A DNA stretch of 32,970 nt, filler included, from an uncultured virus (IMG/VR IMGVR_UViG_2522125174_000001) (lineage: Duplodnaviria; Heunggongvirae; Uroviricota; Caudoviricetes). It is 6 parts of one record of this genome, joined end to end, with 100 filler letters (N's around TTAATTAATTAA, not from the genome) between each part and the next. Parts side by side here need not be neighbours in the genome. Positions count along the whole stretch, not along the records: positions 5,615 to 10,711 come from IMGVR_UViG_2522125174_000001; positions 10,812 to 13,742 come from IMGVR_UViG_2522125174_000001; positions 13,843 to 17,258 come from IMGVR_UViG_2522125174_000001; positions 17,359 to 23,185 come from IMGVR_UViG_2522125174_000001; positions 23,286 to 32,970 come from IMGVR_UViG_2522125174_000001; 1 more part is not named here. One strand, written 5' to 3'. Within the stretch, counting starts at the first letter, position 1, and every line of letters begins with the position of its first letter. The notes beneath the pieces are model-generated. The model ran no database searches, was not told the DNA's origin, and saw only the letters and a program-made list of their open reading frames with translations. Positions 9,723 through 31,352 of the stretch are shown piece after piece. The translations under genes were made by a program, and so were the position numbers.

Positions 9723-10254
9723 TTGGATTGTTAGCTTATTACGGCCATTGTGCGTTGCAGCAACGGCCTTTTGCTTTGGCGTAGGGTGTGCAGGCTCTTT
9801 TTACTATGGCCCGCGTATTCAAAAAGAACGCTCGGCGTTGGTGGAATACAAGGCCCAACTCGCCATGGCCCATGCCCAATTGATTGAAACCCAAGCCAAA
9901 GTCGTCATACAAACTGAAATTCAATTCCGTGAACGCATCAAAATCGTTAAAGAAAAAGGCGACACCATTATCAAGGAAGTGCCTATCTATGTTACCCAAG
10001 CTGATACTGACCGTTTCGGCGTTAACGTTGGCTTCGTGCGCCACTACAATGCCGCCTTTGCCAACGAACCTGCCGGATCTCCCGCTGAGCCTGATCGAAA
10101 ACCCACCGGAATTTCGCTTGCTGAGATTGCCGAGGTCAATGCCTATAACGCCAACATTTGCTGGCAGTGGCGCGAGCAAGCGCTTGGACTAAGAGCATTT
10201 TATCGACAGTTACAAAATGCTCAAACAGCATCCACACACATCCTGAGCCAATAA
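9712..10254 (+). CDS. Rz-like inner-membrane spanin
   Basis: N-terminal hydrophobic segment and helical body. Last gene of the lysis cassette and contains an out-of-frame lipoprotein ORF. Confidence 0.65.
   Translation: MLNNWIVSLLRPLCVAATAFCFGVGCAGSFYYGPRIQKERSALVEYKAQLAMAHAQLIETQAKVVIQTEIQFRERIKIVKEKGDTIIKEVPIYVTQADTDRFGVNVGFVRHYNAAFANEPAGSPAEPDRKPTGISLAEIAEVNAYNANICWQWREQALGLRAFYRQLQNAQTASTHILSQ
9989..10192 (+). CDS. Embedded Rz1-like outer-membrane lipoprotein spanin
   Basis: MLPKLILTVSALTLASC with lipobox LASC, Pro-rich mature part, AAGGAAG upstream. Same length and lipobox in the second copy. Confidence 0.65.
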   Translation: MLPKLILTVSALTLASCATTMPPLPTNLPDLPLSLIENPPEFRLLRLPRSMPITPTFAGSGASKRLD

Positions 10255-10329
10255 ACCTCTTAGCCAGCATCTGATCTAGCGAACCTTGTGTTTCCCTCCC
10301 TATCACAGCTTTGCATCCTTTCAAATCAC

Positions 10330-12976
10330 TCACCTACCGCTCTTCTTCCTACTTTCTAACGCGCCTCGCTGCCTCAAAAGCCGCCCATTCATCTCGCTTA
10401 AGCCTTCTACGCCTTCAAACAACATATCTGCTACACTCAATGCTCCATGCCCCGAACTCCAGTTCAGTTTCAACTTATAGCCTTCCGCTTCTTTTTGCAG
10501 CTCCCACTGGCGCACTGACCTGTCTCTACTGCCACTCACCAAATACTGGTGTCCATCCCGCTCCGTCCAGGCTACACTAGACACGCCCCCCCTAAATCCA
10601 TGAATCACGCGCAGACACACTCCCGAGGACACTTCCCACAGACGCACCGTCTCGTCCTCACTCCCCGAGGCAATCTGCGTGCCGCTCGGCGAATACACCA
10701 CGCTCTGAACCNNNNNNNNNNNNNNNNNNNNNNNNNNNNNNNNNNNNNNNNNNNNTTAATTAATTAANNNNNNNNNNNNNNNNNNNNNNNNNNNNNNNNN
10801 NNNNNNNNNNNCGCACCGTAGTGTCAGCACCCCCCGAGGCAATCTGCGTGCCGCTCGGCGAATACACCACGCTATTAACACTTTCGGTATGGCCTTCTAA
10901 GGTGTGGATTTTTGCCCAGCTTGAGGTGTCATAGAGGCGGATCTTGCCGTTTCCAAGGCCCATCGCACAGGTTTTCCCATCCGGTGAATACGCGCAGGAA
11001 TTGACTTCGCTCTCTTCTTGTATATACGCCCATTCACCAAACTGCACCCCAGCCATCTGCGCACCGCTTAAATTCGCCTCACGGAGCCAGCTGGAGTGAA
11101 GCTTCACTCCGCTTAAATCCGATCCCTGCAATTGCGCTGAATCCAATACCCCAAAACTCAGATCCGCTCCAGGGATCCGGATCCCCTGTAAATCCAGCCC
11201 ATTCAACTGGATCCCTGCCTTGACCAGAATCGTGATCGCATTCGCCGCACCCTGACTCACAGAGTCTGTCTGCTTTGAGCTTTTGAGCCAGGCCAGCAGC
11301 GGTTTCACCAGTGCTCTGTTCTGTTGTACTCGCTCCACTAAAAACTGCTGAATCGCTGCATCCTCCACCAGATTGAAGCGCTTCAATAATCCTTTCGGAT
11401 CCACCCGATCCGAGTCATTCAGCGCTTTCCAGAGGGACTGGACATTCTTCATCCCATTCAAGGGTTCGCCTGCGTCCCCTCCTGCCGACTCTTCCAGCTC
11501 TTCCCACATCTCACGCGCCACGAAATAGTCCCGCAACGATTTATGGATAAACTGGTATTGGTCTCCTTGCCTCGATAACGGCGCATTAAACCGTAAGAGA
11601 CGCGTCTTTTCGTCATCATTACTTAAAAAACGACTCCAATCTTGCCCCTCGCTGGCTTTACCGGTCGAATATGTCGCAACCAAAACCTGCTTTTCATACA
11701 ACGCAAGCGCAAATTCCTGGCTAAAATGAATCCCATGCTCTACAAAATCCTCTTCGGCTAAGCGGTTAAAGGTTTTTTGCTCTTCTTTAGTGAGCTGAAT
11801 CCCTTGTAACCGGCTCTGCGAGCGGCCAAACCAGTTTTTCGCAAACTGCTCATAGAGTGCGCCTCGAGTATAGGAATTCCGATTAGAAGAGCCTTCTTTT
11901 GAGCCCAACGAAGGCAACACCTCTAGCACAATCTTAAGTAAAAATGGATTGCCTATCAGCGCCTGTAAGTCTGGATGCGATAAAGCGCTTTCATACTGTT
12001 CCGCACTCCATTTGGGGGCTTGAGCATGTCTGACATGGCTTTCTACATAGCCTTTAATAGCAGACTTAGAAAAAGGCGCCAGCTCGCATTCTTCAAATAC
12101 CCTGGCTTGACCGGAAGGATAAAACTTGCTTTGATAACTCGGTCCTAAATATTCTGGACGACTACTGATTATCACTTTAGCATCCCACTTATCGAGCTTA
12201 TTATCCATATAAAATGCCCGTTGACGATGCTTGATCTCATCATAGCCATCGAGAATAAAAATAAACCGCCGATTTTGACGTAGCTGTTGGATCTGCTCTT
12301 TTGAAAACCCTTCCTCAGTAAAATATTCCATTAGGAGATTTTTATTCGGATCTTCTAGACTCGTCAGCGGAATAAAGACTGGAATACGCTCATCTTCTTT
12401 TCTATCTGCCTGCTCATATTTCTCCCATAAATCGCGGGCCAAAGAGCGATTAAACGTCGATTTTCCTGAGCCGGCCTCGCCTAGCAGTAAAAAGACTTTT
12501 TTATCCGATTCTAAAAACGCATCAAGCTTGTGTCTTAAATCAAAACGCTCACCCGATTCGCTACTGCTCACCGCCTTACCTTCAGCCCCCACATAAAGAC
12601 TCAATGCATCTCTTATCGTTTCGTCAATTTGTAGGCCTGATAAATAATTCTGTCGCATCGTTTCAATGCTTTCACCTAAATTAGCTAGGGGAGCAGTATT
12701 AGGTTGTAAGGCGAAGTTTTGATGACGTATTAGAGTTTCTAAAAGCTTCGGGTCTAAACCTGTTCCATGGTAATGAACTTCCACTTGGTGATTCGAACCA
12801 CTCACTGGGATACTCACTAAGCCTGTGCTAATTTGTGTGACAGATTGCATCTCTGCATCATAAGCCTCATACATTGAATCAGGTCGTGCTCGTTTATTTG
12901 AAAAAGATGAATCTATTTGAGGAAAATATGAAGCTAAGGAAGGTTGAGTATTCTGGCTTGGATTAATCGGCGACAT
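10330..12976 (-). CDS. NLR-like protein 1: NACHT NTPase + pentapeptide repeats + WD40 repeats (assembly gap within the WD40 array)
   Basis: Walker A GEAGSGKS, Walker B FIFILDGYDE, IISSRPEYL, GNPFLL, FIHKSLRDYFVA, pentapeptides (GADLS…EANLS) and WD40 repeats. Repeat sequence matches on both sides of the gap at 10712-10811. Confidence 0.85.
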
Positions 12977-13148
12977 GCTGGCTACCCCTTTTTAATAATT
13001 CGTATTTAACCTATATCTGAATGATTCGCTGTCGGATAAAAATTCAGCTTTCATTGAATAAAAGCTATTCACTCAAATTAAGACAGCATGGGCAATATCA
13101 GAAACTCTGAAAACGATCTCGCTATTTCTACTTTTATCCTGGATTCAC

Positions 13149-13291
13149 GAATTTGACCGAAAGCCCGCCGGAATTTCGCTTGCTGAGATTGCCGAAGTCA
13201 ATGCCTATAACGCCAACGTCTGCTGGCGATGATATGAGCAAACGCTTGGACTAAGGTTTTTTATCGGCAGTTACAGCACATTCACCAATAA
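13149..13291 (+). pseudogene. Remnant of the 3' end of the Rz/Rz1 gene
   Basis: GAATTTGACCGAAAGCCCGCCGGAATTTCGCTTGCTGAGATTGCCGAAG… aligns by eye with 25085-25228 and ~10090-10215. Carries a premature TGA and an indel. Confidence 0.85.
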
Positions 13292-13332
13292 AATTCAGCT
13301 AGCTTTTGTATTGAACCAGCCTGCCCTCCTTA

Positions 13333-16005
13333 TCAAAGTCTAACATTTCTTTGAATAAAATCTAACACGCTATTCTCTGAGTATCGGGCCCCGCGCTGAT
13401 TTAACAGCTTATGGTTCACTTCGCTTAACCCTCTTACGCCTGCTATTAACGTACCGTTCACCATCAGCTCCTCATGTCCTGGTGACCTCCAATCCAGTTT
13501 GACCTTATACCCTTCTCTCTCTTTTTTTATCTCCCATTGGCGCACGAACTTATCGCTACTACCAGTCAACAGATATCCCCCTCCGGCCCCCCCTTGCCAG
13601 GTTACACTTAAAACGGATCCCATAAAACCTTGAATCTGCCTCAAGCATTCACCCGAGGATACATCCCACAGACGGACCGTATGATCATCACTCCCCGACG
13701 CCAGCTGAGATCCCGTCGGCGAATACGCTACGCTATTAACCCNNNNNNNNNNNNNNNNNNNNNNNNNNNNNNNNNNNNNNNNNNNNTTAATTAATTAANN
13801 NNNNNNNNNNNNNNNNNNNNNNNNNNNNNNNNNNNNNNNNNNACTCCCCGACGCCAGCTGCCCTCCCGTCGGCGAATACGCTACGCTCATAACACTACCC
13901 GTATGCCCGCGCAAGATCGGACCAGCAGCGCCGCTTATGACATCCCACAGACGAACCGTATGATCCAAACTCCCCGACGCCAGCTGAGATCCCGTCGGCG
14001 AATACGCTACGCTCATAACCCAAGACTTATGCCCGCGCAAGGTCAGGATGTTTGCCCAGCTCGACGTGTCGTACACGTGAATCTTGCCATCCTTAAACCC
14101 CATCGCACACGCTTTCCCATCCGGTGAATAGACGCACGAACTCACCCCGTTCTTTACTTTTAGAGTCGGCCATTCGCCAAACCGCACCCCCGCCATCTGC
14201 GCGCCTCTTAAATTCGCCTCACGCAGCCACACCTGACGAAAATTCACTTCGCTTAAATCCGCTCCTTTTAACTGCGCTGAATCAAATATCCCATAACTCA
14301 AATCCGCACCAGGGATCCGGATTCCATTTAAATCCGCTTCATTAAACTGTATCCCTGCTCTGACCAAGAGCGTGATCGCATTCGCCGCTCCCACCGTCAC
14401 CGCAGCATTCCGATTTTTAGACACATCTATCCACGCACACAAGTGGGCTTTGAAAGCCGAGTACTGTTTAACTCGCTCCACCAAGAAATCGAGAATCAGC
14501 GGTTCATCCACTAATAAGAATTGATTCAACACCGCTTCAACGTACGGTTGAGCGCTGTTAAATTGCGGACCACAAATCGCTCGCGCCACACAATAATCTT
14601 GGATCGATTTATGGATAAACCGATAGTGTTGTCCTTGATGAATCAGCGGCGCATTAAACAATAATAAACGTTTTTCTGCATCTTTTTTATTAAGATATGT
14701 CCGCCAGGCTTCTGGAACAACCTCATCCTTTTCAGGGTCGTAGGAAGCTCGTATGATCCCCTTTTGAGTCAAGGCAATCGCCATTTCCTGGCTTGCTTTT
14801 AGTCCTTCTGCAGCCAGATGTTGACCCAACTTATTTCGTGCATCTTTCTCTTCCTTGGTCAATTTAATATGCTGCAACCGCTCGTTAGAGCGATTCCACC
14901 AACGCAATATAAATGCGTCATACAGAGCAATACGAGTCATCGATGCTAGCTCGTTTTTAGTCAGATCGGGTAAAAGATCGAGCGCCATCCGCAGTAAGAA
15001 TGGACGGCGTATCGTTTCTTTTAAAGTCGGTAAATTATTTAAGGCGTCTTGATATCGTTTTAAATCCCATCCTTTCCGTTTGGTATGTTGAATATATTTT
15101 TGAATATATGCGGTGTTCCAGTCATCTGAAATTGGAGAAAGCCAATATTCTTGCAAGGCGGAGGTTTGACCCCGTTTCTGGAATTGACTACGATACCCCT
15201 CTCCGAGATACTCTGGGCGAGAACTGATAATGACTTGCGCATTCTTCCAGCAGTCAAGCTTATTCTGCGTATAAAACGCTTCCGTACGATCTTGAATTTC
15301 ATCAAAGCCGTCCAAAATAAAAACCAACCGTTTTTCTTTTCGAAGCATAGCAATCGCTTCTGGCGAGAATTCTTGTTCCAGCAAATAGCTTTCTATTAAA
15401 TCTTCGCGAGAAGGCGTATGTTCGGCAAGTGCAATAAAAATCGGGAGGGGCGCAGCAGGAGATTGCTTATACTCATCCCAGAGCATGCGCGTTAAATGTC
15501 GATTAAAGGTCGATTTACCTGAACCTGCCTCGCCAAGCAGTAAAAGCACTTTTTTGTTAGATGATAAAAATTCACATACTTTATCAATGAGCGTAAAGGT
15601 AATCTTACTATCCGCCATTTCCTGCCCTTCAGAAGGAATATACAGCGCAAGGCTATCTCTTATTTCATCGGTTTCTTCAAGCACATTGAGGTAGGCAGTT
15701 CTAAGTTCCTCAATCTGTGTACCTAATTGGGCTAGAGGCTTATAACGCGCAGCCTCTGCATGGGCGTTTAACCTTTCAAATATCAGCTTGGTATTTGGAT
15801 CTGAATCCGTTAAGAAAAAATTCGTTGTGACTATGTGATTCTGCCCATAGAGTTGATTGCTCACCATGCAGTTTTCGCTAACTTGCACAATGCTCTGTCC
15901 CTCTATACTTTCTTGCGCATGGATTGCATCAATCTGTGTCAGCAGATTGGAGGAGGTTGAAGTAATGGAAGTTTGGGGGATTCTTGAACCTGAAACGGGC
16001 AACAT
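13333..16005 (-). CDS. NLR-like protein 2: NACHT + pentapeptide + WD40 (gap within the WD40 array)
   Basis: GEAGSGKS, LVFILDGFDE, FIHKSIQDY, pentapeptides and WD40 repeats. AGGAG RBS upstream of the ATG. Repeats match across the gap at 13743-13842. Confidence 0.85.
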
Positions 16006-16302
16006 GCTGACTACTCCTCTTATAGCTCGTGTTTACTTGCCTCTAAATACATTAGTCAACAATTTAGCTTCCACCAAATAAAACTCAATGCTTCGAGCTG
16101 GCGCTTAGGCAGTACCAAAATCCCCGAAAGAGTTCGGCTTTTATTCGAAATTTTACTTGCCCAATTTTACGTCAAATTTGCTTCGGAAAATAAACACCTA
16201 ATTCGCCCTAATAAGGCCTAAAAACGCATAAATTAGCTATTGCTCCGAAGCAGAGAATCGTCTATCCTGTTGATTATATTCACTTTTGTTGAATTTCAGC
16301 CA

Positions 16303-16364
16303 GGACTCGAAATCCGGTATACTGGTCCCCAGTATCGAGGGTTCAAATCCCTCCCTTTCCGCCA
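16303..16364 (+). other. att-core: 3' part of tRNA-Ser(CGA), copy 1 (not a complete tRNA)
   Basis: GGA-CTCGAAA-TCCGG anticodon arm, long variable arm (ATACTGG…CCAGTAT), GAGGG-TTCAAAT-CCCTC T-arm and CCGCCA end. No D-arm or 5' acceptor strand upstream. Confidence 0.85.
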
Positions 16365-16734
16365 ATTCCCTGTGTTTATAAGGCTTTACAGTTTCAACCC
16401 TCCGCTTCTGCGCCGGTTTTTGCTTCGCACTTCCTATTCTGACACCCTGTTTGACCCCATCACACCAAGCCCTGCGCCGGTCTTTTGCTTCGGAATGCAT
16501 TATTTCGTCTATTTCGTGTGCGGGCTTATCGCAACGATCAATAAGGGAGAAAAACGTTTGAGTTGAATCGGGGATTGAGATGATTTTTTATCGTCTTGTA
16601 CCTTGCTGTGGAGAACAGCAGAGCACGTCCAAGCCGGAAAAATTTCTGGATGTTTAAGAAGGAGGGAAGCTAACTGATCTGTTGGCTTCTTGTGCTACGA
16701 CAATGCTACTTTTTCCGGTGAGCCCGTACTAGGT

Positions 16735-16797
16735 CTGAGCGAGAACCCACCGGAATTTCGATTACTGAGTTTGCCAAAATCAACGTACAGCAAGCGT
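16735..16797 (+). pseudogene. Short degenerate Rz/Rz1 remnant
   Basis: CTGAGCGAGAACCCACCGGAATTTCGATTACTGAGTTTGCC reads ENPPEFRLLSLP, matching Rz1 ENPPEFRLLRLP. Confidence 0.7.
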
Positions 16798-16846
16798 AGC
16801 GGGATTCTCGAGTTAACTCAAAGACTCCCGCCTTCCGCCAATAGGC

Positions 16847-19479
16847 CTATATTGCGCCTCGTTGTCTTAACAAAGCTGCATTTTGAAAACTGAGATTACG
16901 GGCATCTTGGATGAGGGCTTTTGAAGCAACAAGCGTATCTTGATTTGAAACCCAATCTAGCGTGATTGTGCCTATTTTGCCTGAGCGATAAGGAATTTGC
17001 CAAAGACGAATCGTTTTATCGTCTCCTGCTGTGGCCAATATAGCTGCTTCATCCTGCACGGGGTGCCACGCAACGGTCCGAATAGAACCTACCCAGCCTT
17101 CGAGTACCGTTTGACAATCCCCTGTTAAGACAGACCAAAGCCTAACTGTTTGATCCTCACTTGCAGACGCGAGCCACTGTCCATCACTTGAGAGCGCGAC
17201 GCTCCGCACTGCATCTGTATGCCCTTCATAGGTATAGGCCAGTGCACGTTCTCCCCCTNNNNNNNNNNNNNNNNNNNNNNNNNNNNNNNNNNNNNNNNNN
17301 NNTTAATTAATTAANNNNNNNNNNNNNNNNNNNNNNNNNNNNNNNNNNNNNNNNNNNNACTCCCAGAGGCAAGCTGCGTTCCGCTCGGCGAATACGCTAC
17401 GCTATTGACACCATCCGTATGTCCGAGCAACGTCCGGACCGATTCACCGCTTTGCACATCCCACAGCCGTACCGTATGGTCAGAACTCCCAGAGGCAAGC
17501 TGCGTTCCGGTCCGCGAATACGCTACGCTATTGATACCATCCGTATGTCCGCGCAGAGTACGGATTTTTGCCCAGCTCGACGTGTCATACACGCGGACCT
17601 TGTCATCTTCTAACCCCATCGCGCACGCTTTACCATCCGGCGAGTAGACACACGAATGCACTTCGCTCTTTTCTTTCAGAGTCGGCCACTCCCCAAACTG
17701 CACTCCCGCCATCTGCGTGCTACTTAAATTCGCCTGATACAGCCATACCTGACGAAAATTAACCCCGCTTAAATCCGACCCTTGCAATTGCGCTGAATCA
17801 AATACCCCATAACTCAGATCCGCTCCAGGTATCCGGATTCTATTTAAATCCGCTCCATTAAACTGTACTCCTGCTCTGACCAAGATCGTGATCGCATTCG
17901 CCGCGCCCACCGTCACTACAGCATCAGGAACTTTAGAGGCTTCTATCCACGCACGAAGGTACGCCTTAAACTGAGGTTGCCCTTTAACCTGCTCAACCAG
18001 AAAATCTAAAATCACCGGCTCTTTCACCAGCGATAGCTGATTCAGCACATTTTCGGGATTGGCATCGATTGCATCAAAATCAGGGGCGCAAATGGCTCGC
18101 GCCACTAAATACTCCTGCATCGACTTATGCGAAAATTCATAATGCTGCTTTTGCTTTATCTGAAACGGCGCGTTAAAGCACAGTAGACGGGCCTTTGCAT
18201 CATTCGCAAAAAAAGCCGCATAGACTCCTTTATATCGCTTCTCAAAATCCTCACTATCCTGAGCAGATGTCAGCCCCGCTTTGGTGAGCTCTATCGCGCA
18301 TTTCTGTATATAAGTAAAACCTTGTCGTATAAACCCACCTTTGCGCTCACAGAGTTCTTTCTTAGCCTTTTTTTCATCATCCTCTAATGCGATAGCGCCC
18401 AAGCGATTCTGCCAGTTACTCCACCATTTCTGAAAGTAGTGTTCATAAATCGCACCGAGCGTTAAGGCTTTCTGGTTTTGATTCATTTTCCCCAATTCAG
18501 GAAGGATCTGCAAAAGCATTCGCAACACAACAGGCCGTTCTAGTTCCTTGCTTAAAGTTGTCAACTTGTTAAATGCCTGCTCATACTGTTCCACAGTCCA
18601 CGGGGGAGTGCTTTTGTTGACATAATTTTGAATGTAATTCGACCTTTGCTGCGCTGAGAATGGGGCCATCCTGGCTTCCCAAAGTGCATCAGGCGCCGCT
18701 TTTTTAGGGCGGAAATACGCTTGATAATTCGTATCCAGATACTCAGGTCGGCTTGTAATCACAAACTTGGCCTTTTCCCACGCCCATAATTTATTTAAAT
18801 CATAAAAATTACGATTCCTTTCCTTGATCTCATCGTACCCATCAAAAATAAAAATACAGCATTGGTGTAGGTGAGTCCGTAATAATTCAATTTGCTCCGA
18901 TGCAAAACCTTGGCCCTGCAAAAATTGTTCAATAACCTGCTTATTCGGATTCTCAATACTTCTCAGTTCGATAAAAAAAACTAAAGGCGGATCGTTTTGG
19001 GTTTGGGACAGACGTTGATAATCTTCCAACTTTTTGAGGGCTAAATGTCGATTAAAGGTCGATTTCCCTGTGCCCGCCACGCCTTGCAATAAAAATACCG
19101 CCGCCTTTGAAGCAAAAAATCGCTCTAATTCTGCTTCAAGCTCTACCGTCTCTTCTCCTTGTTGGCCTTTCTTTATGCCCTGTACCGGAACATACATCGA
19201 CAGCACATCCACTTCGCCGCTACGCTCTAAATGGCTTTTATACGCTTGCTTGAATCTATCGGCATCGACGCCGAGTTTGGCAAGAGGTTCAAGTATAGGT
19301 TGGAGCGCCTTCCTCTGATTTTCTTGGCTCTTTTCAATGCCTTGCATTAAAGCTTCTACGATCTTGGGATCTAAAGCCCCCGCGTCGAAATTCACTGTAG
19401 ATTCATTATGCGCACCATAGACTGAGATATTAATCAAGCCATAGCTGTTTTGCGTTACTGGTCGTGCCTCAGGAAACAT
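16847..19479 (-). CDS. NLR-like protein 3: NACHT + pentapeptide + WD40 (gap; pairing of the two halves uncertain)
   Basis: GVAGTGKS, IFIFDGYDE, FSHKSMQEYLVA, pentapeptides and WD40 repeats. AGGAG RBS. The C-terminal piece 16847-17258 ends in the family-typical …NAALLRQRGA. Confidence 0.8.
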
Positions 19480-22559: not shown

Positions 22560-22725
22560 ATGCTGTTTGACAGCAATGGAATGTCTAATGTGATTTTCCC
22601 TGTCAAGTTTTCAACGAAATGTCTGGCCATTCATGGCACTCATCTCGGCACTGGATGTGCAACCGTCATCGAATATGTCGGGACTCGAACCAATATAGGC
22701 GCCACATTGTGCACTCTCGATGAAA

Positions 22726-23380
22726 GTAAGCGCGAAATTAAACCCACCTTGTCATTTTAAAAGTCAGAAAAGAGAATGATTCTTTTTTGAAAAGGGTCAG
22801 AAATGAAAACCAGTGAAGTGGTGTTGACGACCTTTGACGGACACTTTTAAACTACCTAAAAAGGAGTCTTTAATGCGTAAAAGCAAAGCGCCGTATCCAT
22901 CGGCATTCCGTGAACAAATACTAGAGCTAATACAAGCTGGCAAGAGTGTTAAAGAGTTATCCAAAGAGTTCGATTGCTGCCCTAAAACAATCCTGAGTTG
23001 GGTAGCGCAAGCCTCAATAGCTCAAGCTCCTAAATCATCGATCAAGGCGGGCCTAAATACTGCAGAGGGAGAAGAGCTCAGTCGCTTACGCCGTCAAGTA
23101 AGGCAGCTCCAAATGGAGCGGGATATCTTGGCAAAGGCTACGGCCTGGTTTGCCGCAAAAGGCGAGAAGATACACACTCCCTCTTNNNNNNNNNNNNNNN
23201 NNNNNNNNNNNNNNNNNNNNNNNNNNNNNTTAATTAATTAANNNNNNNNNNNNNNNNNNNNNNNNNNNNNNNNNNNNNNNNNNNNTTTACTCCCTTTTAA
23301 TTTCCACACAAGCTCTGACGCTTCTTGATAACTCTCTGAGTTGCACATTTATGTCAAGGTGGGGTTAATTTCGCGCTTAC
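22726..23380. mobile_element. IS66-family element (interior lost in an assembly gap) with an 8-bp target duplication
   Basis: Terminal inverted repeats GTAAGCGCGAAATTAAACCCACCTT / AAGGTGGGGTTAATTTCGCGCTTAC. CGATGAAA is duplicated at 22718-22725 and 23381-23388. Confidence 0.8.
22814..23185 (+). mobile_element. IS3-family element left end with OrfA (ATG 22873), nested in the IS66-like element
   Basis: TG…GGACAC end and AAGGAG RBS. MRKSKAPYPSAFREQILEL…ELSRLRRQVRQLQMERDILAKATAWFA is an HTH/leucine-zipper OrfA. Confidence 0.75.
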
Positions 23381-23493
23381 CGATGAAAATGCCATGACCC
23401 GCGCAGGATGGGGCCTTCATTGGTTTGCTATTGGACATTAATTTGCCCTCTCATGTCTATTCTTCTGTTTTCTATTTAAACCCACTTCATAAT

Positions 23494-23913
23494 ATGACTT
23501 TTTATTATTCAAAATCAGAACCCGGATTTTACTGCGTCGGGATACATGGCGATAACATCCCTAAAGATGCTGTCTCGATTACTCAAGAAGAGCACACCGC
23601 ATTGCTCAATGCCCAATCCAAAGGCAAATGGATCCAGTCTAATGAGAACGGCTACCCAGTGGCTGTTGACCCGCCTCCACTTACCCCTGAGGAGTGGGCC
23701 GACATTAATTCACGCCGTCGACAAGCTCGGTTGAGTCAAGCGGCTTTAAAAGTCGCTCCTTTACAAGATGCCGTAGACCTCAACATCGCCACGGATGACG
23801 AAAAACAGCTTCTCAAAGAATGGAAACTTTATCGGGTCGCTCTCAACCGCATTGAGCAGCACTATAGCCTTTCCGCCGAGATCGACTGGCCTAAACCGCC
23901 TGATGAGAATTGA
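23494..23913 (+). CDS. tfa: Tail fibre assembly chaperone, copy 2
   Basis: Near-identical to 8498-8917. Confidence 0.85.
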   Translation: MTFYYSKSEPGFYCVGIHGDNIPKDAVSITQEEHTALLNAQSKGKWIQSNENGYPVAVDPPPLTPEEWADINSRRRQARLSQAALKVAPLQDAVDLNIATDDEKQLLKEWKLYRVALNRIEQHYSLSAEIDWPKPPDEN

Positions 23914-23931
23914 ATCCATTGATATTGTGTC

Positions 23932-23957
23932 GACCGCCTTAGAGCGGTCTTTTTTTT
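23932..23957 (+). terminator. Rho-independent terminator-like hairpin, copy 2
   Basis: GACCGC-cttaga-GCGGTC followed by a T-tract. Confidence 0.7.
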
Positions 23958-23981
23958 CATCTACACACTTATAAAAAATTC

Positions 23982-24407
23982 ATGACCGACACCTTTGACA
24001 GGGCCACACTCGTTTCGGAGCTTAAACGCGATGAAGGCGAGCGCTTTAAACCCTACTTCGATACCGTCGGCAAAATCACCATCGGCGTTGGGCGCAATCT
24101 GACGGATGGGGGCATTTCTGAAAACGAATGCGAGATCCTTTTGCACAACGATATTGCTCGAACGCTTCAGTGGCTGGATCGGCATTTACCCTGGTGGCGG
24201 ACCCTGAAGGCGGTATGGCAACGCGTGCTGATCCATATGGCCTTTAACCTGGGCGGCCATCTTCTGACCTTTGTTCATACTCTGGACGCCATGCAACGCA
24301 ACGATTACACAGCCGCGTCTAACGAAATGCTCGCTTCAAAATGGGCGAATCAGGTCGGCCAACGAGCGCAGCGCCTCGCCAATATGATGCGCACCGGAAA
24401 AATTTAA
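23982..24407 (+). CDS. Endolysin (GH24), copy 2
   Basis: Paralogue of 8987-9412 with the catalytic E…D…T motif intact. Confidence 0.9.
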   Translation: MTDTFDRATLVSELKRDEGERFKPYFDTVGKITIGVGRNLTDGGISENECEILLHNDIARTLQWLDRHLPWWRTLKAVWQRVLIHMAFNLGGHLLTFVHTLDAMQRNDYTAASNEMLASKWANQVGQRAQRLANMMRTGKI

Positions 24408-24423
24408 CTCTCAATATTAAAAA

Positions 24424-24720
24424 ATGAATCTTCACGAACATGATCGAACGTTTGTTGCCACGCTTGCTGCGATGGGCGCGGTGATTGGGTTTGGCCAGCT
24501 GCTCACCGGTGGCGAGAAAATCACGGCTCGACTGATTATCGGGCGCATGATCGTCGGCGCGGGCTTAAGTGTCGCTGCGAGTTCAATCCTCACGCTTTTG
24601 CCTGAATTACCTGCGATTGCTATCACGGGTCTCGGCGCAGCCTTCGGTATTCTCGGCCAGTCTTACTTGGAATTAGCCGTACAACGCTGGTTGGGTAAAC
24701 GCTCAAATCATGCTGAATAA
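24424..24720 (+). CDS. Holin, copy 2
   Basis: Paralogue of 9429-9722. Confidence 0.8.
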   Translation: MNLHEHDRTFVATLAAMGAVIGFGQLLTGGEKITARLIIGRMIVGAGLSVAASSILTLLPELPAIAITGLGAAFGILGQSYLELAVQRWLGKRSNHAE

Positions 24721-25228
24721 TTGGATCGCGGCTCTATTGAGACCATTGTGCATCGCAGCAACCGCGTTCAGCTTTGGCGTAGGATGCGCAGGCCATTTTT
24801 ACTACGGCCCGCGTATTCAGAAAGAACGTTCAGCGCTGGTGCACTATAAAGCCCAACTCGCCATGGCCCATGCCCAATTGATTGAAGCCCAAGCCAAAGT
24901 CGTTATCCAAACCGAAATTCAATACCGTGATCGCATCAAAATCGTCAAGGAAAAAGGCGATACGATTATTAAGGAAGTGCCTATCTATGTTACCCAAGCT
25001 GATAACGATCGCTTCGGCGTTAACGTTGGCTTCGTGCGCCACTACAACGCTGCATTTGCCAACGAGCCTGCCGAAACTCCCTCTGAATTTGACCGAAGAC
25101 CCGCCGGAATTTCGCTTGCTGAGATTGCCGAAACTAATGCCTTTAACGCCAATATCTGCCACCAGTGGCACGAACAAGCACTGGGATTGAGGGCATTTTA
25201 CCGTCAGCTTCAGCACACTCACAAATAA
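24710..25228 (+). CDS. Rz-like spanin, copy 2
   Basis: Paralogue of 9712-10254. Confidence 0.65.
   Translation: MLNNWIAALLRPLCIAATAFSFGVGCAGHFYYGPRIQKERSALVHYKAQLAMAHAQLIEAQAKVVIQTEIQYRDRIKIVKEKGDTIIKEVPIYVTQADNDRFGVNVGFVRHYNAAFANEPAETPSEFDRRPAGISLAEIAETNAFNANICHQWHEQALGLRAFYRQLQHTHK
24987..25190 (+). CDS. Embedded Rz1-like lipoprotein, copy 2
   Basis: MLPKLITIASALTLASC lipobox, 67 aa, AAGGAAG upstream. Confidence 0.65.
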   Translation: MLPKLITIASALTLASCATTTLHLPTSLPKLPLNLTEDPPEFRLLRLPKLMPLTPISATSGTNKHWD

Positions 25229-25246: not shown

Positions 25247-28200
25247 TCAGAGTTCTTCAACAGCGCTTTCTTCTTCATTCATAGCGTCCACCAAAACGAT
25301 ACTATCCATTTCGTCAGAATTCTCTTCGGAAAAGGCTAGAGCATTTCTTTGTTTTTGTGCGAGCAAACGAGCATTACCTGGACTTAAATCCCGAGTGCCT
25401 TCAATCAACAAATCGCCTACGAAAAGCTCGTTTTGATGTGAAGCCCAGCACAAACTAAATTTCCAGCCGTTTTCTTTGCGCGCTAGCTGAAAAATACGAG
25501 CCATATTTTCGTTCCCTCCCAGCACAATTCTAGCTGAGTCTTCCGCAACCTCTTGCCAAACAATTGAATTAACTTCCCCAACAAAAGCTTGAATCTTTGC
25601 TTTACATTTGCCTGTGTCTAACAACCACAGCCTCATTATTCTTTCAGCACCCCCAGATGCTAACCACTTGCCATCTGGCGAGAACGATACACTCATCACT
25701 TCCCCACGATGTCCTTCAAGCGTCTGACGCAACAACACTCCTGCGCTTCCTAGCTCCCACAACCTCACTGTCTTGTCAGCACTCCCAGACGCTAACCACT
25801 TGCCATCTGGTGAAAACGATACTCTCGTCACTTCCCCATGATGCTCTTCAAGCGTTTGACACAACAACGCTTCTGCGCTTCCTAGCTCCCATAGCTTTAC
25901 CGTCCTATCCCCGCTCCCAGACGCCAACCATTTACCATCTGGTGAAATAGATACATCCCACACTGTATCATGATGCCCTTCAAGCGTTTGACGCAACAAC
26001 GCTCCTGCGCTTCCTAGCTCCCACAACCTCACTGTCTCGTCAGAACTCCCAGACGCCAACCATTTACCGTCTGATGAAAACGATACTCTCGTCACTTCCC
26101 CATGATGCTCTTCAAGCGTTTGACGCAACAACGCTCCTGCGCTTCCTAGCTCCCACAACCTCACTGTCTCGTCAGAACTCCCAGACGCCAACCATTTACC
26201 GTCTGATGAAAACGATACTCTCGTCACTTCCCCATGATGCTCTTCAAGCGTTTGACGCAACAACGCTCCTGCGCTTCCTAGCTCCCATAGCTTTACCGTC
26301 CTATCCTCGCTCCCAGACGCCAACCATTTACCATCTGAGGAAATAGATACATCCCACACTGTATCATGATGCCCTTCAAGCGTTTGATGCAACGAAGCTC
26401 CTGTGTTTCCTAGCTTCCACAGCTGCAACTTCCCATTATTGGTCGATGCTAACCACTGGCCATCTGGCGAGATAGACAAACTCGATGTCGCCGTAGAACG
26501 CTCTTCAATCGTTTGATACGATAACGCGCTTACGCTTTCTATATCCCACAGCTTTACCGTCCTATCCCAACTCCCAGACACTAACCACTTACCGTCTGGC
26601 GAGAACAATACACTCCGCACTGGCTCATAATGCCCATCAAACATTTGGCGCAACAACGCTCCTTCGCCTCCTAGCTCCCATAGCTTCACCGCGCCATCCC
26701 AAGCACCAAAAGCTAGCCATTTCCCGTCTGACGAAAACGACACACTCGCCACTGCACCGCTATATCCTTCAATCGTCTGGCGCAACAGCGTTCTTGCGCT
26801 TCTCAGTTCCCACAGTTTTACTGTTCCATCAAGACTCCCAGACGCTAACCACTGGCCATCTGGCGAGATCGATACACTCATCACTCCCCCACGATGTCCT
26901 TCAAGCGTCTGACGCAACAACACTCCTGCGCTTCCTAGCTCCCATAGCTTTACCGTCCTATCCCCGCTCCCAGACGTTAACCATTTGCCGTCTGGTGAAA
27001 CCGATACACTCGTCACTTCCCTACGATGCCCTTCAAGCGTGTACTGCAGTTGACCCGTTTGTACTGCCCATAATTTGATCGTATTGTCGTAACTGCCTGA
27101 GACAAGCCATTGCCCCTCTGGCGAAAACGCAACGCTCGAAACCTGAGCATTGTGCCCTATAAATGTGCTCTGTAACCCACCCGATTCAACTGACCTTAGC
27201 TCCACGACAATAGTATTGGCCAACGCGAGCCATTGGCTATCTGGCGAAAACGCGATGCTTTTCACTCCCGATTCCCCCGTTCCAATATGCAGCGTGGCAT
27301 ACTTGAGTTCTAGAGTTTGCGCCTGATACAGTTTGACATAGCCACTAGCTGTGCCAACAGCTAGCCAGTGACCGTCTGTCGAATAACTGCAATCTTGAAC
27401 AAAATCTCCTACCTCTAACGCAGGCATTTCACCAAATTCAACATCTCTCAACGTTGCTGCACGCATATTGGCCCCGCGTAACCACACACCGAGCAATTTC
27501 ACCTCGCTTAAATCAGCACCTTCAAACTGGGTTCCATCAAATATGCCATAACTTAAATCCGCTCTGGGCACGCGTATCCCGTTGAAATTTTTGTTATTCA
27601 AATGCACGCCGGCTTTCACCAATAGAGTGAGTGCATTTGCGGCACCCCTCTCAAACTGAGCACCGTCTTCTCCTTTAGATTGCTCTACCACGCTCAAAAG
27701 CTTGCTTTCTAACTTCGGCTCTCGCTGCATGCGCTCGGCTAAAAACTGCAATACCGCTGGATCGTTCACAATATTTAACGTATTGAACGCAAAGGAAGGT
27801 TCAATCTTGTTATGAGTATCTAACTCTTCCCACAGCGCTCGAGCCACAAAATAATCCTGCATCGATTTATGAATAAACCGGTATTGCTCTCCTTGGCGGA
27901 TTAACGGCGCATTAAACCGCAATAACCGCGTCTCTTCACTCTTATTTCCAAAGTATTTTTGTTTCCAATCTTCCGCCTTTGCCCCACTTACTCCCGAATA
28001 TGTCACCACTACCGCTTTATCTTCATGCATCTGGACCGCTAACTCTTGGCTAAATACCAATCCATACGCCGTAAAATTATCTTCATCCAAACGATTNNNN
28101 NNNNNNNNNNNNNNNNNNNNNNNNNNNNNNNNNNNNNNNNNNNNNNNNNNNNNNNNNNNNNNNNNNNNNNNNNNNNNNNNNNNNNNNNNNNNNNNNNNNN

Positions 28201-30588
28201 NNNNNNNNNNNNNNNNNNNNNNNNNNNNNNNNNNNNNNNNNNNNNNNNNNNNNNNNNNNNNNNNNNNNNNNNNNNNNNNNNNNNNNNNNNNNNNNNNNNN
28301 NNNNNNNNNNNNNNNNNNNNNNNNNNNNNNNNNNNNNNNNNNNNNNNNNNNNNNNNNNNNNNNNNNNNNNNNNNNNNNNNNNNNNNNNNNNNNNNNNNNN
28401 NNNNNNNNNNNNNNNNNNNNNNNNNNNNNNNNNNNNNNNNNNNNNNNNNNNNNNNNNNNNNNNNNNNNCATTCTTCAAATACTCGTGCTTGACCGGATGG
28501 ATAAAATTTGCTTTGATAACGGTCTCCTAAATATTCGGGGCGGCTGCTTATTATGACTTTCGCCTGCCATTTCTCGAGTTTGTTATCGGTATAAAACGCA
28601 CGAGAACGTTGCGCAATCTCATCATAGCCATCCAAAATAAAAATAAATCGCACACCTTTACGTAAATCTTCTATCTGGTGTTTAGATAAACCTTGTTCTT
28701 CCAGATATTGTTCGATCAAATTTCTGCCGGGGTTCTCTAGCGTAGCCAGTGAAATGAATAATGGGATTGGCCTTTCTTGGGTATTTTCCGCTTGTGTATA
28801 GTCTTTCCATAACCGATGTGCCAGGTAACGGTTAAATGTTGACTTTCCGCTTCCGCCCTCACCTAACAGCAACAAGACTTTTTTATCCGAATCCAAAAAC
28901 TCATTGACCTTCCCTTCTAAATCAAAATGTTCTGTCGCCTCCGCTGTGAGCTTACCTTGCGGTGCAACATACATCGCCAAACCATCCTGGATTTCTCCAA
29001 GCTCTTCCCAGTCCTTGAAATATTCTGCCTGGATACTTTCACCTAAAATCGCAAGTGGCTCTTTCTTCGATTTCAGTTCTTTTTCTTGCTGATGCTTCAA
29101 TTGTTGATGGAGTTGCTGCACGGTAAGGGCAAGCTCGTTGTGTAACGCTTTCCGTATATCATCGAAAATACTGTCTACGAGTTGGGTAAACTCAAGCCCA
29201 TCAAACTTTGAATCGTTCTTCAAATGCGAAATACAATCGCTGTACCCCTGCCAAAACTTATTCAGAAACGTTTGGGCTTCGTCACTACCCGCTAACAGCC
29301 GCTCGATCAGCTTAAAGAGCACCCCATGCCGACTTTGATTCGCATACACTTCTCGCCCTGCTTGCGCTTGTTCTTCAAAGCGCGGTATGTCTTCCATCCG
29401 AACCGCTGTCGCTGAAACAAAATCTGACAAGCACGCATCGTAGCTATTCAAGGTTAACGCAACCGGAATAATCCCATGCTTATCTTTAAGCTCTTCTGCT
29501 CGGATTTGCAAAAATGCCATTTCTGTCAATACATGATGGAACCCGGCCTTATAGCTTTCCTCTTGCGAGAATTCTCTGACCACCTCACGTATCGCCATCG
29601 CGCTATCTTGCTCACTATCTTTAAGATACGCTTCTCGATCTTTGCGATACGCCTCTCGCAGTTTCTGATAAAAATGGCCATAATCCGACCACTTTAGATA
29701 ACTTCCCAATACCTCAGAACAACACACCGTGACCTTATCGACCGGGGTCACATCGCCTCGCAACCGCCCCGGTAATAGACACAGCTGATTGGTTAAAATA
29801 TCTTCTAGCTTGCCGTCCTTTTTCAGATCTCTCGAAACACTTGAATACGGTTGCCCCATCGGCGTTTGATCCGAATACAAAATCACTTGAATTTGAGAGA
29901 GCTTTTCAATTAAATATTTAGAGGTAGAGGCCTCAGCCTTTCCGTGGGCTGGATTGTCATGCGCATATACTAAAAACAGGCTGGGTTTATTCGCGACCTT
30001 TAAGGCACCCAGCGTCGACAGCGCCTTTTCAAACAGGTAATCCATCTGCTTGCTTTTTTCTTCGATAGACACATCAACCTCTCGTTGCAAAGGCGTTAGA
30101 CTCAGTTTTGAAGGCCGCGCATTTGCAACCCACTCTTTTGTTGGATCCAGTTGTTTTCTATTCCCCTCGCTCACACTCTCATTTTTAATTAAAAATGAGC
30201 CGTACCGTGCGCCTATTTGTTGATGCAACATTCGCGCGCCGGTTTGCTTCATATCCATATAAGGCGCGTACTCTAACGCCTTTTTATAATTCTCCTCAGC
30301 GCCGCATTTATCGTCTTTGCGTAGAAAAGTGCCATAGTAAAAATGGCTTGCGGCAAGTTGCTCTCTTATTTTTCTTAATTCAGACTCATTTTGAGTGCTT
30401 TGCAGCACGTCTTCTGCTTTGCGAATCCCCGCTTCAAAACATTCCTTTGCTTTCTCCAGATATCCTTGCGCCTCATAGCCCGTCGCTTCCTCTCGAAGCT
30501 TATTGGCTGCTGACAAGCCAGAAACTGAAGTGGGGGTCGGATTAACCCCTCTACCCCCAACCCCCATCAATACATTCAAATTAAACAT
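25247..30588 (-). CDS. NLR-like protein 4: TPR-like + TIR/SEFIR-like + NACHT + pentapeptide + ~14 WD40 repeats (gap 28097-28468)
   Basis: The N-terminal part has TPR-like helices, SLFLVYAHD…, GEGGSGKS and FIFILDGYDE. The C-terminal part has FNAPL…FIHKSMQDYFVA, pentapeptides and 44-aa WD40 repeats. The halves are colinear with NLR1 across the gap. Confidence 0.8.
25981..26287. repeat. Perfect 132-bp tandem repeat (about 2.3 units) within the WD40 array
   Basis: Unit starting CAAGCGTTTGACGCAACAACGCTCC recurs at 25981, 26113 and 26245. Confidence 0.9.
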
Positions 30589-30848
30589 TTTCTTTTCCTT
30601 TTATTACTTATTCGAATTACGTGGATAAAGAACGCCGCTCACCCGGCGAGCGTGGACGCGAAGATTTCATTGGCTTCGACGCTATCCCATTGAAGTTTAC
30701 TTCGCGCAATTCTACTGCAAAATTTGCTTCGGAAAATAAACACCTAATTCGCCCTAATAAGGCCTAAAAACGCATAATTTGGCTATTGTTCCGAAGCAGA
30801 GAATCGTCTATCCTGTTGATTATATTCATCTTTGTTGATTTCCCTCCA

Positions 30849-30910
30849 GGACTCGAAAGCCGGTATACTGGTCCCCAGTATCGAGGGTTCAAATCCCTCC
30901 CTTTCCGCCA
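30849..30910 (+). other. att-core: 3' part of tRNA-Ser(CGA), copy 3
   Basis: Same as copies 1 and 2 except one T>G in the anticodon stem (…CTCGAAAGCCGG…). Confidence 0.85.
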
Positions 30911-31280
30911 ATTCCCTGATGCTATAAGGCTTTCCCGTTTCAAACCTCCGCTTCTGCGCCGGTTTTTGCTTCGTTAGCCCGCTTCCAATCCCTTGTTTGG
31001 CCTCATCACTAAAAGCCCTGCGCCGGTCTTTTGCTTCGGAATGCGTTATTTCGTCTGTTTTTTTATATGGCTTATTGCAATGGTCATTACGGCGAAGAAA
31101 CGTTTGGGCTGAATCGGAGCTTGAAATGATTTTTTATCGTTTTGCGCCTTGCTGTGGAGAACAGCAGAACAAATATAAGATGGGAAAAATTTCTAGATGT
31201 TTTAGAGGGAAAGTAGCTGCCAGATCTATTGGCTTTTTGTACTAATATATGCCGCTTCTACTGGTGGGCCTGGTACGGGG

Positions 31281-31345
31281 CTGAACGAAAGCCCACCGGA
31301 ACTTCGATTGCTGAGTTTGCCGAAGTGAATACATTACAAGCGCTC
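31281..31345 (+). pseudogene. Short degenerate Rz/Rz1 remnant
   Basis: GAAAGCCCACCGGAACTTCGATTGCTGAGTTTGCCGAAGTGAAT, homologous to 16735-16797 and 13159-13202. Confidence 0.7.
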
Positions 31346-31352
31346 TGATTCA

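Follow-up and report, generated by a model that had tools for sequence, protein, structure and literature searches.

A 32,970-nt stretch of DNA from an uncultured tailed virus (IMG/VR IMGVR_UViG_2522125174_000001), hereafter the window, carries parts of what is probably an array of head-to-tail temperate tailed phages at a tRNA-Ser(CGA) gene, with NOD-like receptor (NLR)-like genes as cargo at the phage ends and exchange of that cargo through shared flanks. The flanks are the 3′ end of the lysis gene Rz on one side and, on the other, an attachment (att) locus whose core matches the 3′ part of the tRNA. We put the probability of this reading at about 0.75. The source of the window is most likely a Mycoavidus-type Burkholderiaceae endosymbiont of Mortierella fungi, because the loci that bear this Rz are nearly all in Mycoavidus metagenome-assembled genomes (MAGs) and the homologues of the cargo bear Mycoavidus names. 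Two sets of related sequence extend the comparison: a complete relative (G001), which is a single contig of 2.795 Mb with 24% of the window's words in common, and three IMG/VR records of the window's own genome (G002, G003, and G004), which were found by a search with Rz.

Tandem prophages in a complete relative

The succession of related phages integrating at tRNA-Ser(CGA), proposed in the initial annotation of the window, is seen directly in G001. An intact tRNA-Ser(CGA) gene (1739458-1739548) is followed head to tail by three full prophages: A (1739549-1784226; 44.7 kb), B (1784291-1830938; 46.6 kb), and C (1831003-1877223; 46.2 kb). Beyond them lie a fourth unit, which has an integrase and an internal deletion, and then shorter units bearing insertion sequence (IS) DNA of the IS256 family, to about 1.95 Mb; the tRNA and all units are on one strand. 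The junctions between prophages are alike, each consisting of a left flank of ~146 nt, a core of 63-66 nt, a P′ arm of ~365 nt, and a 3′ piece of Rz, and the first junction, at the real tRNA, likewise has a P′ arm and an Rz piece. The junction cores are 100% identical to those of the window, and core copies are 92-100% identical.

Each prophage opens with the core, P′ arm, and Rz scar; a large gene on the minus strand comes next, then the tyrosine integrase (356 aa), early genes, and structural genes. It closes with the tail fibre, endolysin, holin, and Rz, after which one or two further large minus-strand genes lead to the left flank and the core. Cargo thus occupies two slots, on either side of attP: one past Rz (slot A) and one across att (slot B). 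An open reading frame (ORF) of the size of the 356-aa integrase is present in four G001 units, and the single one examined matches PF00589 and phrog_1. All 18 large genes at unit ends encode WD40 proteins; a NACHT module is present in 14 (one is cut by the end of the analysed sequence), and the other four, of 866-890 aa, are composed of pentapeptide and WD40 repeats only. A core followed by P′ arm, Rz scar, and cargo gene is the ordinary junction of two full prophages.

Proteins of 866-907 aa with pentapeptide and WD40 repeats and without NACHT are constant in length and are mostly encoded right after an Rz scar (slot B). This WD40-only family has members at G001 1784830-1787502, 1877803-1880403, 1904121-1906748, and 1925967-1928585, as well as in loci L033 (10539-13184) and L044 (13579-16302).

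Around the G001 chromosome the NACHT module occurs at 74 places and Rz at 37. A convergent Rz piece lies at the 3′ end of 23 of the 74 NACHT places (22 by an interval test and one added by hand), and at least 27 of the 37 Rz pieces face a NACHT or WD40-only gene (four WD40-only genes included). The link from Rz to NLR-like genes is strong, and the link from NLR-like genes to Rz holds for about a third of the family. A second cluster, at ~437-485 kb, contains at least eight plus-strand NACHT genes interspersed with minus-strand copies or pieces of Rz; it resembles the tRNA-Ser array in mirror image.

The att locus of the window

One locus of ~0.5-0.7 kb is present three times in the window, in copies that are 76-91% alike. 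The att core (16303-16364, 19781-19842, and 30849-30910) corresponds to the 3′-terminal 62 nt of tRNA-Ser(CGA), which span the anticodon stem through CCA, as identified by an antisense Rfam match and by comparison with the intact tRNA of G001. For the tRNA fragment, Rfam returns only an antisense match to a plastid 3′-UTR family, under the gathering score, and ARAGORN detects no whole tRNA within the window. The three copies of a tRNA-Ser att locus described in the initial annotation are thus a real repeat, but each carries only the 62-nt tRNA fragment. In a Logan contig from the window's own sample the 5′ half of the tRNA directly precedes position 16303; therefore, an intact tRNA exists in the window's genome and the crossover point is exact.

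The first att junction (16150-16797, plus strand) consists of a P arm (16150-16302), the core, a P′ arm (16365-16678), and an Rz scar (~16679-16797) joined at Rz nt ~316. The third (30696-31345, plus strand) comprises a P arm, the core, a P′ arm (30911-31224), and an Rz scar (~31225-31345) with the same joint, which is cut by IS256-family DNA at ~31346-31351; this is the fifth Rz remnant that had already been noticed abutting an IS256 end. In the second (19628-20065, plus strand), which lacks an Rz scar, the P arm and core are followed by only ~222 nt of a truncated P′ arm, and a similarly truncated junction is present in G001 (1911321-1911747). A junction without att (12977-13291, plus strand) is made of a 172-nt spacer termed j1 (12977-13148) and an Rz 3′ scar (13149-13291) that runs from Rz nt ~381 to the stop codon. 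Junctions of the j1 type recur in G001 at 1898946-1899230, 1826590-1826784, and 1925591-1925921. Between the P′ arm and the lysis region there is no homology beyond the Rz scar.

A contig in runs X1 and X2 tracks the P′-scar region to 16783 and then diverges into other sequence; this loose end means that at least one further junction copy with another neighbour exists in the genome. Word depth summed over att is ~4-6 times that of unique parts, which is a hint only and not a copy number.

Lysis cassettes and Rz/Rz1

Two lysis cassettes border the cargo genes, both on the plus strand. The first encodes a tail-fibre assembly protein (8429-8917), an endolysin (8987-9412), a holin (9429-9722), and an Rz-like protein (9712-10254), as assigned with PHROGs. 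The second (23381-25228) has the same genes at 23425-23913, 23982-24407, 24424-24720, and 24710-25228, and is 90% identical to the corresponding region of prophage C. The endolysin (phrog_7) and holin (phrog_175) are both directly upstream of Rz, which closes the cassette and has a hydrophobic N-terminal membrane anchor, as read from its translation. A Rz1-like lipoprotein ORF is embedded within each Rz in the +1 frame (9884-10192, from translation, and 24882-25190, both plus strand), and both contain L-A-S-C followed by a proline-rich tail; the Rz1-like call follows the lipobox rule. The best PHROG for Rz is phrog_4952 (“signal peptide motif,” E 1.6e-37), the match to the Rz-like spanin phrog_1403 is weak (E 7e-4), and neither Rz nor Rz1 matches Pfam. 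The two full Rz copies, ending at 10254 and 25228, have 86% protein identity. These and three remnants, all listed in the initial annotation, were recovered by repeat comparison.

NLR-like genes facing Rz

The four NLR-like genes of the window encode a NACHT module, then pentapeptide repeats, then WD40 repeats (Pfam). NACHT (PF05729) scores are 48.6, 54.2, 48.5, and 36.3 bits, all above the curated Pfam cut-off of 26.7. Walker A reads GEAGSGKS or GVAGTGKS in all 12 aligned N-termini, which fits GxxGxGKS/T, and an acidic Walker B (DG[YF]DE) follows a hydrophobic strand in the translations. The stop codons of the NLR-like genes lie 19-76 nt from Rz copies or pieces.

All of these genes are on the minus strand. 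Gene 1 (10330-12976) is composed of a WD40 C-terminal end (10330-10711) on contig c2 and a NACHT-pentapeptide-WD40 N-terminal part (10812-12976) on contig c3; it converges with Rz, its stop codon lies 76 nt past the Rz stop, and a G001 gene at 1924110-1925727 matches its N-terminal part with 87% identity. Gene 2 (13333-16005) has its C-terminal end (13333-13742) on c3 and its N-terminal part (13843-16005) on c4, a contig that is covered by Logan contigs of runs X1 and X2. “Gene 3” is represented by the N-terminal 707 aa (17359-19479) of a gene that encodes 1,244 aa in G003, so that ~10 further WD40 units and the C-terminal end are outside the window. Before it in window order is a WD40 C-terminal end (16847-17258; Pfam) whose N-terminus is not in the window. 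The best match of this piece is a WD40-only 890-aa gene next to the integrase of prophage B (80.6% to 1784770-1785239), which fits its being the slot-B gene of a next prophage. Genes 1, 2, and 3 are 87, 79, and 77% identical to G001 genes that lie in different flanking contexts.

Gene 4 (25247-30588) has an N-terminal region of ~575 aa, which has no Pfam match, followed by NACHT, a gap of 372 N (28097-28468), and an array of 44-aa WD40 units; its stop codon is 19 nt past the Rz stop. The repeats of the array (25579-27063) are 132-nt units at 70-90% identity. Nine of these units vary mainly at six of the 44 positions (16, 18, 20, 21, 36, and 38), and two neighbouring units are identical. Such variability is the pattern expected of a fast-changing binding surface. 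The hypervariable WD repeats of fungal HNWD genes show a similar pattern.

Gap-free records and the joins of the window

The window is a pseudo-molecule of contigs c1 to c6, with five joins that were each built as 44 N, an all-frame stop linker TTAATTAATTAA, and 44 N: 5515-5614 (c1-c2), 10712-10811 (c2-c3), 13743-13842 (c3-c4), 17259-17358 (c4-c5), and 23186-23285 (c5-c6). In addition to the gap within gene 4 there is a plain gap at 32571-32670. The N- and C-terminal parts of genes 1-3 are on separate contigs because three of the joins sit within WD40 repeats. The 100-nt linkers do not mirror true gap size.

Record G002 (36.6 kb) is 100% identical to the first phage of the window, stops at the Rz stop, and bridges c1-c2, where 2,109 nt are hidden in the window; no integrase was found in it. 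Record G003 (48.6 kb, without N) is 100% identical to 17359-23185 (5,827 nt) and 23286-25228 (1,943 nt) and confirms the c5-c6 join, where 3,260 nt are hidden, including an IS3-type element. The c2-c3 and c3-c4 joins have as their sole backing gene-specific repeat words of 42 and 45 nt (other pairings share ≤22 nt), and shared words between contig ends give no support for c4-c5. To the left of c5, G003 does not have the c4 sequence, including the gene end at 16847-17258. It has instead the rest of the 1,244-aa gene, a 196-nt j1-type spacer without an Rz piece, and a 1,288-aa NLR-like gene; beyond these come a third full Rz with its holin and endolysin, and phage body sequence of ~30 kb. Therefore, “gene 3” as drawn in the window is a composite of ends from two genes, and 17259-17358 hides at least one second NLR-like gene and a whole phage, or else c4 and c5 are not neighbours.

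The initial annotation had all four NACHT-WD40 genes converging on Rz. The short distances between stop codons and Rz hold, but with a chimeric gene 3 only three of the four pairings stand. The records of the window's genome add to them: in G004 a NACHT-WD40 gene converges on a fourth Rz, and a convergent NLR-like gene follows all four full Rz copies of this genome (the two in the window, the third in G003, and the fourth in G004).

The cargo slot in other strains and phages

An Rz alignment scan of species-representative genomes recovered 11 loci, ten in Mycoavidus cysteinexigens MAGs and one in Pseudoduganella. Where a Mycoavidus locus has DNA past Rz, a convergent WD40 or NACHT-WD40 gene is present in eight of nine cases, three of them cut in the repeats by contig ends. 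The ninth (L038, 10829-11584) belongs to a diverged phage with 65% Rz identity and has an N6/N4 methylase in the slot; the tenth Mycoavidus locus has only a broken Rz. In the Pseudoduganella phage (L039, 10406-11734) the post-Rz slot contains a C5 methylase. IMG/VR proviruses with downstream DNA have the same Rz-NLR pattern in six of seven cases, and these overlap the genomes already counted. The variable content of the place between Rz and att, which had been postulated for relatives of the window and was to be checked there, is thus found in G001 and in other Mycoavidus records. In at least five records (L045, L047, L049, L051, and L055) the provirus call ends no more than a few bases from the Rz stop, with the cargo and att excluded.

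Rz scars and probable exchange of cargo

Three Rz 3′ pieces are present in the window (13149-13291, ~16679-16797, and ~31225-31345). Across the window and G001, the pieces are joined to their neighbours at Rz nt ~175, 216, 292, ~316, or ~360. Seven att-type copies have the joint at nt ~316; the window contributes two of them and G001 five, among which are those that start each full prophage. A j1-type joint is common to the window (13149) and G001 (1899128 and 1826662), with a longer copy at 1925729 joined at nt ~292, and the G001 piece at 1886617 has its joint near nt ~360, directly after a tail-fibre gene. Two further pieces begin at nt 175 and 216. The pieces are 69-86% identical to full Rz and contain deletions and other indels. 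A common left end at Rz nt ~381, suggested by BLAST and considered as a possible recombination site, was rejected: it arises from internal indels, homology extends further to the left in the alignment, and the joints differ. The Rz pieces are scars, now decaying, of a number of distinct deletions with at least three different joints, and each joint has been passed on to several copies.

On the right, homology among Rz copies runs out at about nt 503, and the final codons of the gene vary with the cargo. Prophages A and C have slot-A genes that are 94.7% identical, compared with 90% for the backbone. Prophage B has the same level of backbone identity and unrelated cargo, with homology breaking at Rz nt ~503 and resuming at att. 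Compared with prophage C, the N-terminal half of gene 4 shows 96% identity to the cargo, and the adjoining lysis genes show 90%. This mosaicism is what homologous recombination at shared flanks would be predicted to give.

In the proposed order of events, the tyrosine integrase would be active and would recombine a core of 62-66 nt that matches the 3′ part of the tRNA exactly. Each integration would rebuild the tRNA and leave a spare core at the far end as an entry for the next phage. Each phage of the family would package, as accessory end cargo, NACHT-pentapeptide-WD40 or WD40-only genes: in slot A, one to three opposite-strand genes past Rz/Rz1, followed by the ~150-nt 5′ flank and the core; and in slot B, across att, in the interval from the P′ arm to the integrase. 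Deletion between the P′ arm of a prophage and its own Rz would fuse the att of its neighbour to the cargo of that prophage. The Rz 3′ pieces would then be scars of phage-body deletions between neighbouring cargo genes, and full-length prophages would inherit such scars. Excision across a composite of this kind would yield a phage with a second cargo gene, which would explain why full prophages start with P′, scar, and gene, and why prophage B and the G003 phage hold two slot-A genes split by a j1-type junction. The shared flanks (Rz to nt ~503 on one side, the 5′ flank and att on the other) would permit cargo to be swapped by homologous recombination, and short core-bounded units without an integrase could move in trans. 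On this model phages are a likely vehicle for the spread and reshuffling of the NLR-like family.

Cargo function and the N-terminal motif

We consider the chances about even that the cargo proteins are intracellular sensors of the signal transduction ATPases with numerous domains (STAND)/NLR type, serving the prophage or the cell in conflicts with other phages. Hypervariable WD40 surfaces would bind the ligand, and an amyloid-like N-terminal motif would relay the signal to small partners that have two copies of the motif. In NCBIfam there is no family for the NLR-like proteins (the EruA match scores 18 bits against a cut-off of 1000).

The motif is a G/N/Q-rich stretch of ~30 aa common to NLR-like genes with a short N-terminus (12662-12850, minus strand, and the N-termini of the genes at 16005 and 19479). 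In G001 the motif region is found at E <1e-6 in 30 NLR-size open frames, and it also matches three small proteins (234-269 aa). These three are recovered at E 3.1e-5 to 4.6e-5 (Z = 2800), in two stretches each, by a profile of 12 NLR motifs, which matches none of 177 other non-NLR ORFs in the 240-kb region. With paralogues, the small motif protein has five sites in G001 (157544-158314, 348956-349606, 1623890-1624672, 1631164-1631802, and 2201754-2202524). NLR-like genes adjoin four of the five sites, and three of these four have an Rz piece no more than ~10 kb away; the partners are 0-7 kb from the NLR-like genes. A gene order of small protein, ~860-aa ARM_5 protein with the N-terminal motif, and NLR-like gene is kept at four of the five paralogues. 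The small motif protein has no significant BLASTP match to the N-terminus of gene 4 (E 0.08). The layout of the motif suggests, as far as sequence can, NLR-type amyloid signalling pairs.

One such prophage end, in L044 (G001 1614001-1634000), has Rz at 2288-2848 (plus strand) and, on the minus strand, a 1,376-aa NLR-like gene (3012-7142), an 863-aa ARM_5 gene (7259-9850), and a 261-aa TPR-motif gene (9887-10672). The three-gene order recurs in G001 near 157-166 kb and 349-355 kb, and as pseudogenes at 2194-2202 kb.

A bolder extension, in which phages carry, diversify, and exchange a library of ~70 NLR-like genes with amyloid signalling to a few partners, and have also ferried the family between bacterium and fungus, seems improbable.

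A different role for the same cargo is possible, though we think it somewhat unlikely: the cargo would be aimed at the fungal host, as the counterpart of the eukaryotic association module (EAM) of Wolbachia phage WO, with proteins or genes reaching the fungus and affecting its own NLRs. Among the 120 best homologues of one G001 cargo protein, all the named ones are from Mycoavidus-type bacteria or fungi, and the fungal ones are from Linnemannia (62%), Mortierella, Gamsiella, Modicella, Glomeromycota, and Pezizales. However, close homologues on short fungal contigs (one of 4 kb) could be endosymbiont DNA. Mortierellomycota are reported to have acquired NACHT-PPR-WD40 NLRs from Mycoavidus (accessible text of 10.1101/2021.12.02.471044), shared N-terminal NLR domains are reported in the accessible text of 10.1101/2022.03.16.484565, and the NACHT protein of the WO EAM has animal relatives, according to the available portion of PMC5062602. 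An endosymbiont genome of 2.8 Mb has also retained 74 copies. Set against this, no secretion signal or link to a secretion system turned up, and no search for either was made; moreover, the motif partners are encoded by the bacterium, some of them adjoining NLR-like genes, which fits signalling inside the bacterial cell.

Alternative explanations of the array

Prophages and integrative elements are known to accrete in tandem at tRNA att sites, and remnants of the cis-mobilizable element (CIME) type are known from the integrative and conjugative elements (ICEs) of Streptococcus. The short att-bounded units might accordingly be CIME-like elements without an integrase that are moved or accreted by the integrase of a neighbouring prophage, an explanation that we regard as unlikely. 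Core-bounded units without an integrase do exist in G001 (1893946-1903601 and 1903540-1911523), their cores have the 92-100% identity noted above, and a single P′-scar joint is present in seven copies, as though one unit had multiplied. The same joint, however, starts each full prophage, so that plain inheritance within the phage explains the copies. Neither an excised form nor an empty site was seen, and the one candidate unit of the window (16303-19842) hinges on the unsupported c4-c5 join.

Still more doubtful is a compact stack of four single-gene cassettes acting as an integron-like library that feeds a resident prophage through the Rz and att flanks, which is how the initial annotation had read the window. 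Junctions free of phage DNA are real within contigs: c3 holds the start of gene 1, the 172-nt spacer, the Rz scar, and the stop of gene 2, and the third att locus is followed only by a scar and IS DNA. Short units are present in G001 (e.g., 1899128-1913479), and the homology between prophages breaks and resumes at the flanks (Rz nt ~503 and att), as a cassette exchange would have it. But G003 has a phage body, a third Rz, and an extra NLR-like gene where the window has a 100-nt linker, and the succession of att, P′, scar, and gene is the normal junction of full prophages in G001. The compact four-cassette stack is thus in part a scaffolding illusion. The deletion of phage DNA with sparing of the cargo, a further element of that interpretation, is seen in G001; what falls away is the four-cassette stack itself, which conceals a whole prophage and another NLR-like gene at one join or more. 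The integron analogy likewise finds no support in mechanism: no integron integrase or other dedicated recombinase is present among the window ORFs, there are no attC-like cassette ends or other cassette recombination sites, and the scars are decaying and differ in their joints.

That the NLR-like genes are ordinary chromosomal paralogues, with an incidental rather than regular position at phage ends, is least likely of all: 51 of the 74 G001 NACHT places lack an Rz piece and provirus calls end at the Rz stop in at least five records, but three full tandem prophages carry the genes within their att-bounded units, on either side of att, at least 27 of the 37 G001 Rz pieces face such a gene, and the same slot is filled in other strains.

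Several observations nevertheless weigh against the tandem-phage reading with exchangeable NLR-like cargo. With 51 of the 74 NACHT places in G001 lacking a 3′ Rz piece, most of the family is not visibly tied to this phage, and the initial expectation that NLR-like genes would be bound to the Rz and att flanks fails for that majority. The Rz label itself depends on position, the membrane anchor, the embedded lipobox ORF, and a weak PHROG match. The ~150-nt P arm (left flank) is also found upstream of NLR-like genes without an adjacent core; instead of an integrase arm it may represent the promoter region of the gene itself. No intact integrase was found in a Pfam scan of the window ORFs, which contain only an 86-aa fragment. 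The order of units in the window's genome is not established, since c4-c5 is contradicted and c2-c3 and c3-c4 are backed by repeat words only. The comparative evidence is limited to few genomes of one genus, with several duplicate records. As for function, PADLOC returned for eight proteins only P-loop (E 1e-4 to 1e-6) and WD40-region matches and no defence family, the small partners have only sub-threshold TPR matches and no killing domain of the Bell/HeLo type, and the named relatives beyond Mycoavidus-type bacteria are only fungal among the best 120, which would fit a host-directed role too.

Other features of the window

The right arm of a prophage, with baseplate and tail genes assigned by PHROGs (1-10254, plus strand), precedes gene 1; it is a 100% match to provirus record G002 and 88.6% identical to prophage A, and includes a tail-fibre gene (7456-8445, plus strand). 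Between “gene 3” and the second lysis cassette are decayed prophage remains on mixed strands (20641-23185; Pfam). A 507-aa ORF (20641-22164, plus strand) has a Gp53-like_C tail-fibre C-terminal domain fused to a long Ser/Gln-rich coiled-coil N-terminal part and, amid integrase and tail-fibre fragments, looks like a chimeric remnant. The others are an 86-aa C-terminal fragment of an integrase (22299-22559, minus strand; Pfam), a tail-fibre fragment (22560-22760, plus strand), and the start of an IS3-type transposase (22834-23185, plus strand). IS256-family DNA (31352-32970, plus strand; Pfam) closes the window, with an inverted end piece (31352-31562) and a Mutator-family transposase ORF (31628-32455).

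Relation to known systems and significance

The anatomy appears to combine known kinds of arrangement (tandem lysogeny at a tRNA, prophage-end cargo hotspots, and the WO EAM), and the link between NLR-like genes and phages appears to be new. As in other accretion at tRNA att sites and in CIMEs, the core is identical to the 3′ end of a tRNA that is regenerated, units are head to tail, and att-bounded remnants lack an integrase; unlike those, the units here are tailed phages, and decay always spares one gene family at the unit ends. Accessory (“moron”) and defence hotspots at prophage ends include those of P2 and P4 and the genes downstream of lambda Rz. The slot described here resembles them in its fixed place by the lysis genes and att, its variable content, and its opposite-strand or own-promoter genes; it differs in being almost single-family in Mycoavidus and in the capture of a neighbour's cargo through inter-prophage deletions that leave Rz scars. 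With integrons the array has in common single-gene units with shared flanks arrayed at one chromosomal site, whereas no IntI-type integrase was found in the scanned window ORFs, each unit has its own 5′ flank, and the flanks are phage gene scars and att arms; no attI or attC bounds the cassettes, and no search for attC folds was made.

Phage WO carries in its EAM, a symbiont-prophage module, very large proteins that include a NACHT protein with relatives in the host lineage, according to the available part of PMC5062602. Both systems are prophage cargo in an intracellular symbiont whose nearest outside relatives (here, among the best 120) come from the host lineage. The present one differs in that its host is a fungus, that the cargo belongs to a single expanded NACHT-pentapeptide-WD40 family, with 74 copies in G001, instead of combining various domains, and that this cargo is placed both in the interval from Rz to att and across att; action on the host is putative here. 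Bacterial NACHT and Avs anti-phage proteins (bNACHT/Avs; as far as the accessible text of 10.1101/2022.07.19.500537 goes) are similar in their central NACHT NTPase, C-terminal repeat sensor, and association with mobile DNA, and different in that the cargo proteins match no PADLOC or NCBIfam family beyond the P-loop, have no recognised enzymatic effector domain, and have fungal NLRs as relatives. The amyloid pairs of fungal NWD2/HET-S and bacterial BASS/Bell, as presented in the accessible text of 10.1101/2022.03.16.484565, likewise have one motif at the NLR N-terminus and two on the C-terminal side of a small nearby protein, but the partner here is TPR-like rather than Bell or HeLo, some 30 NLRs face five partners, and the motif copies are ~60 aa apart.

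Mycoavidus genomes are described as prophage-rich in PMC5877345, and a term search of the accessible text of that paper gave no NACHT or WD40. Mortierella-type fungi and Mycoavidus share NACHT-pentapeptide-WD40 NLRs, as stated in the accessible text of 10.1101/2021.12.02.471044. No publication placing the Mycoavidus NLR family on phages was found among openly available texts, a search that did not extend to subscription papers such as Uehling et al. 2017. Because provirus callers end at the Rz stop and short-read assemblies break within the WD40 repeats, NLR-like cargo is systematically missed or mis-scaffolded. If NLR-like genes are indeed regular phage cargo, there would be a concrete route to the ~74 copies in a 2.8-Mb genome and to the diversity among strains, and possibly also a route for transfer between bacterium and fungus. 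The array would then be a fungal-symbiont parallel to phage WO and would offer a tractable natural set of NLR variants with defined flanks.

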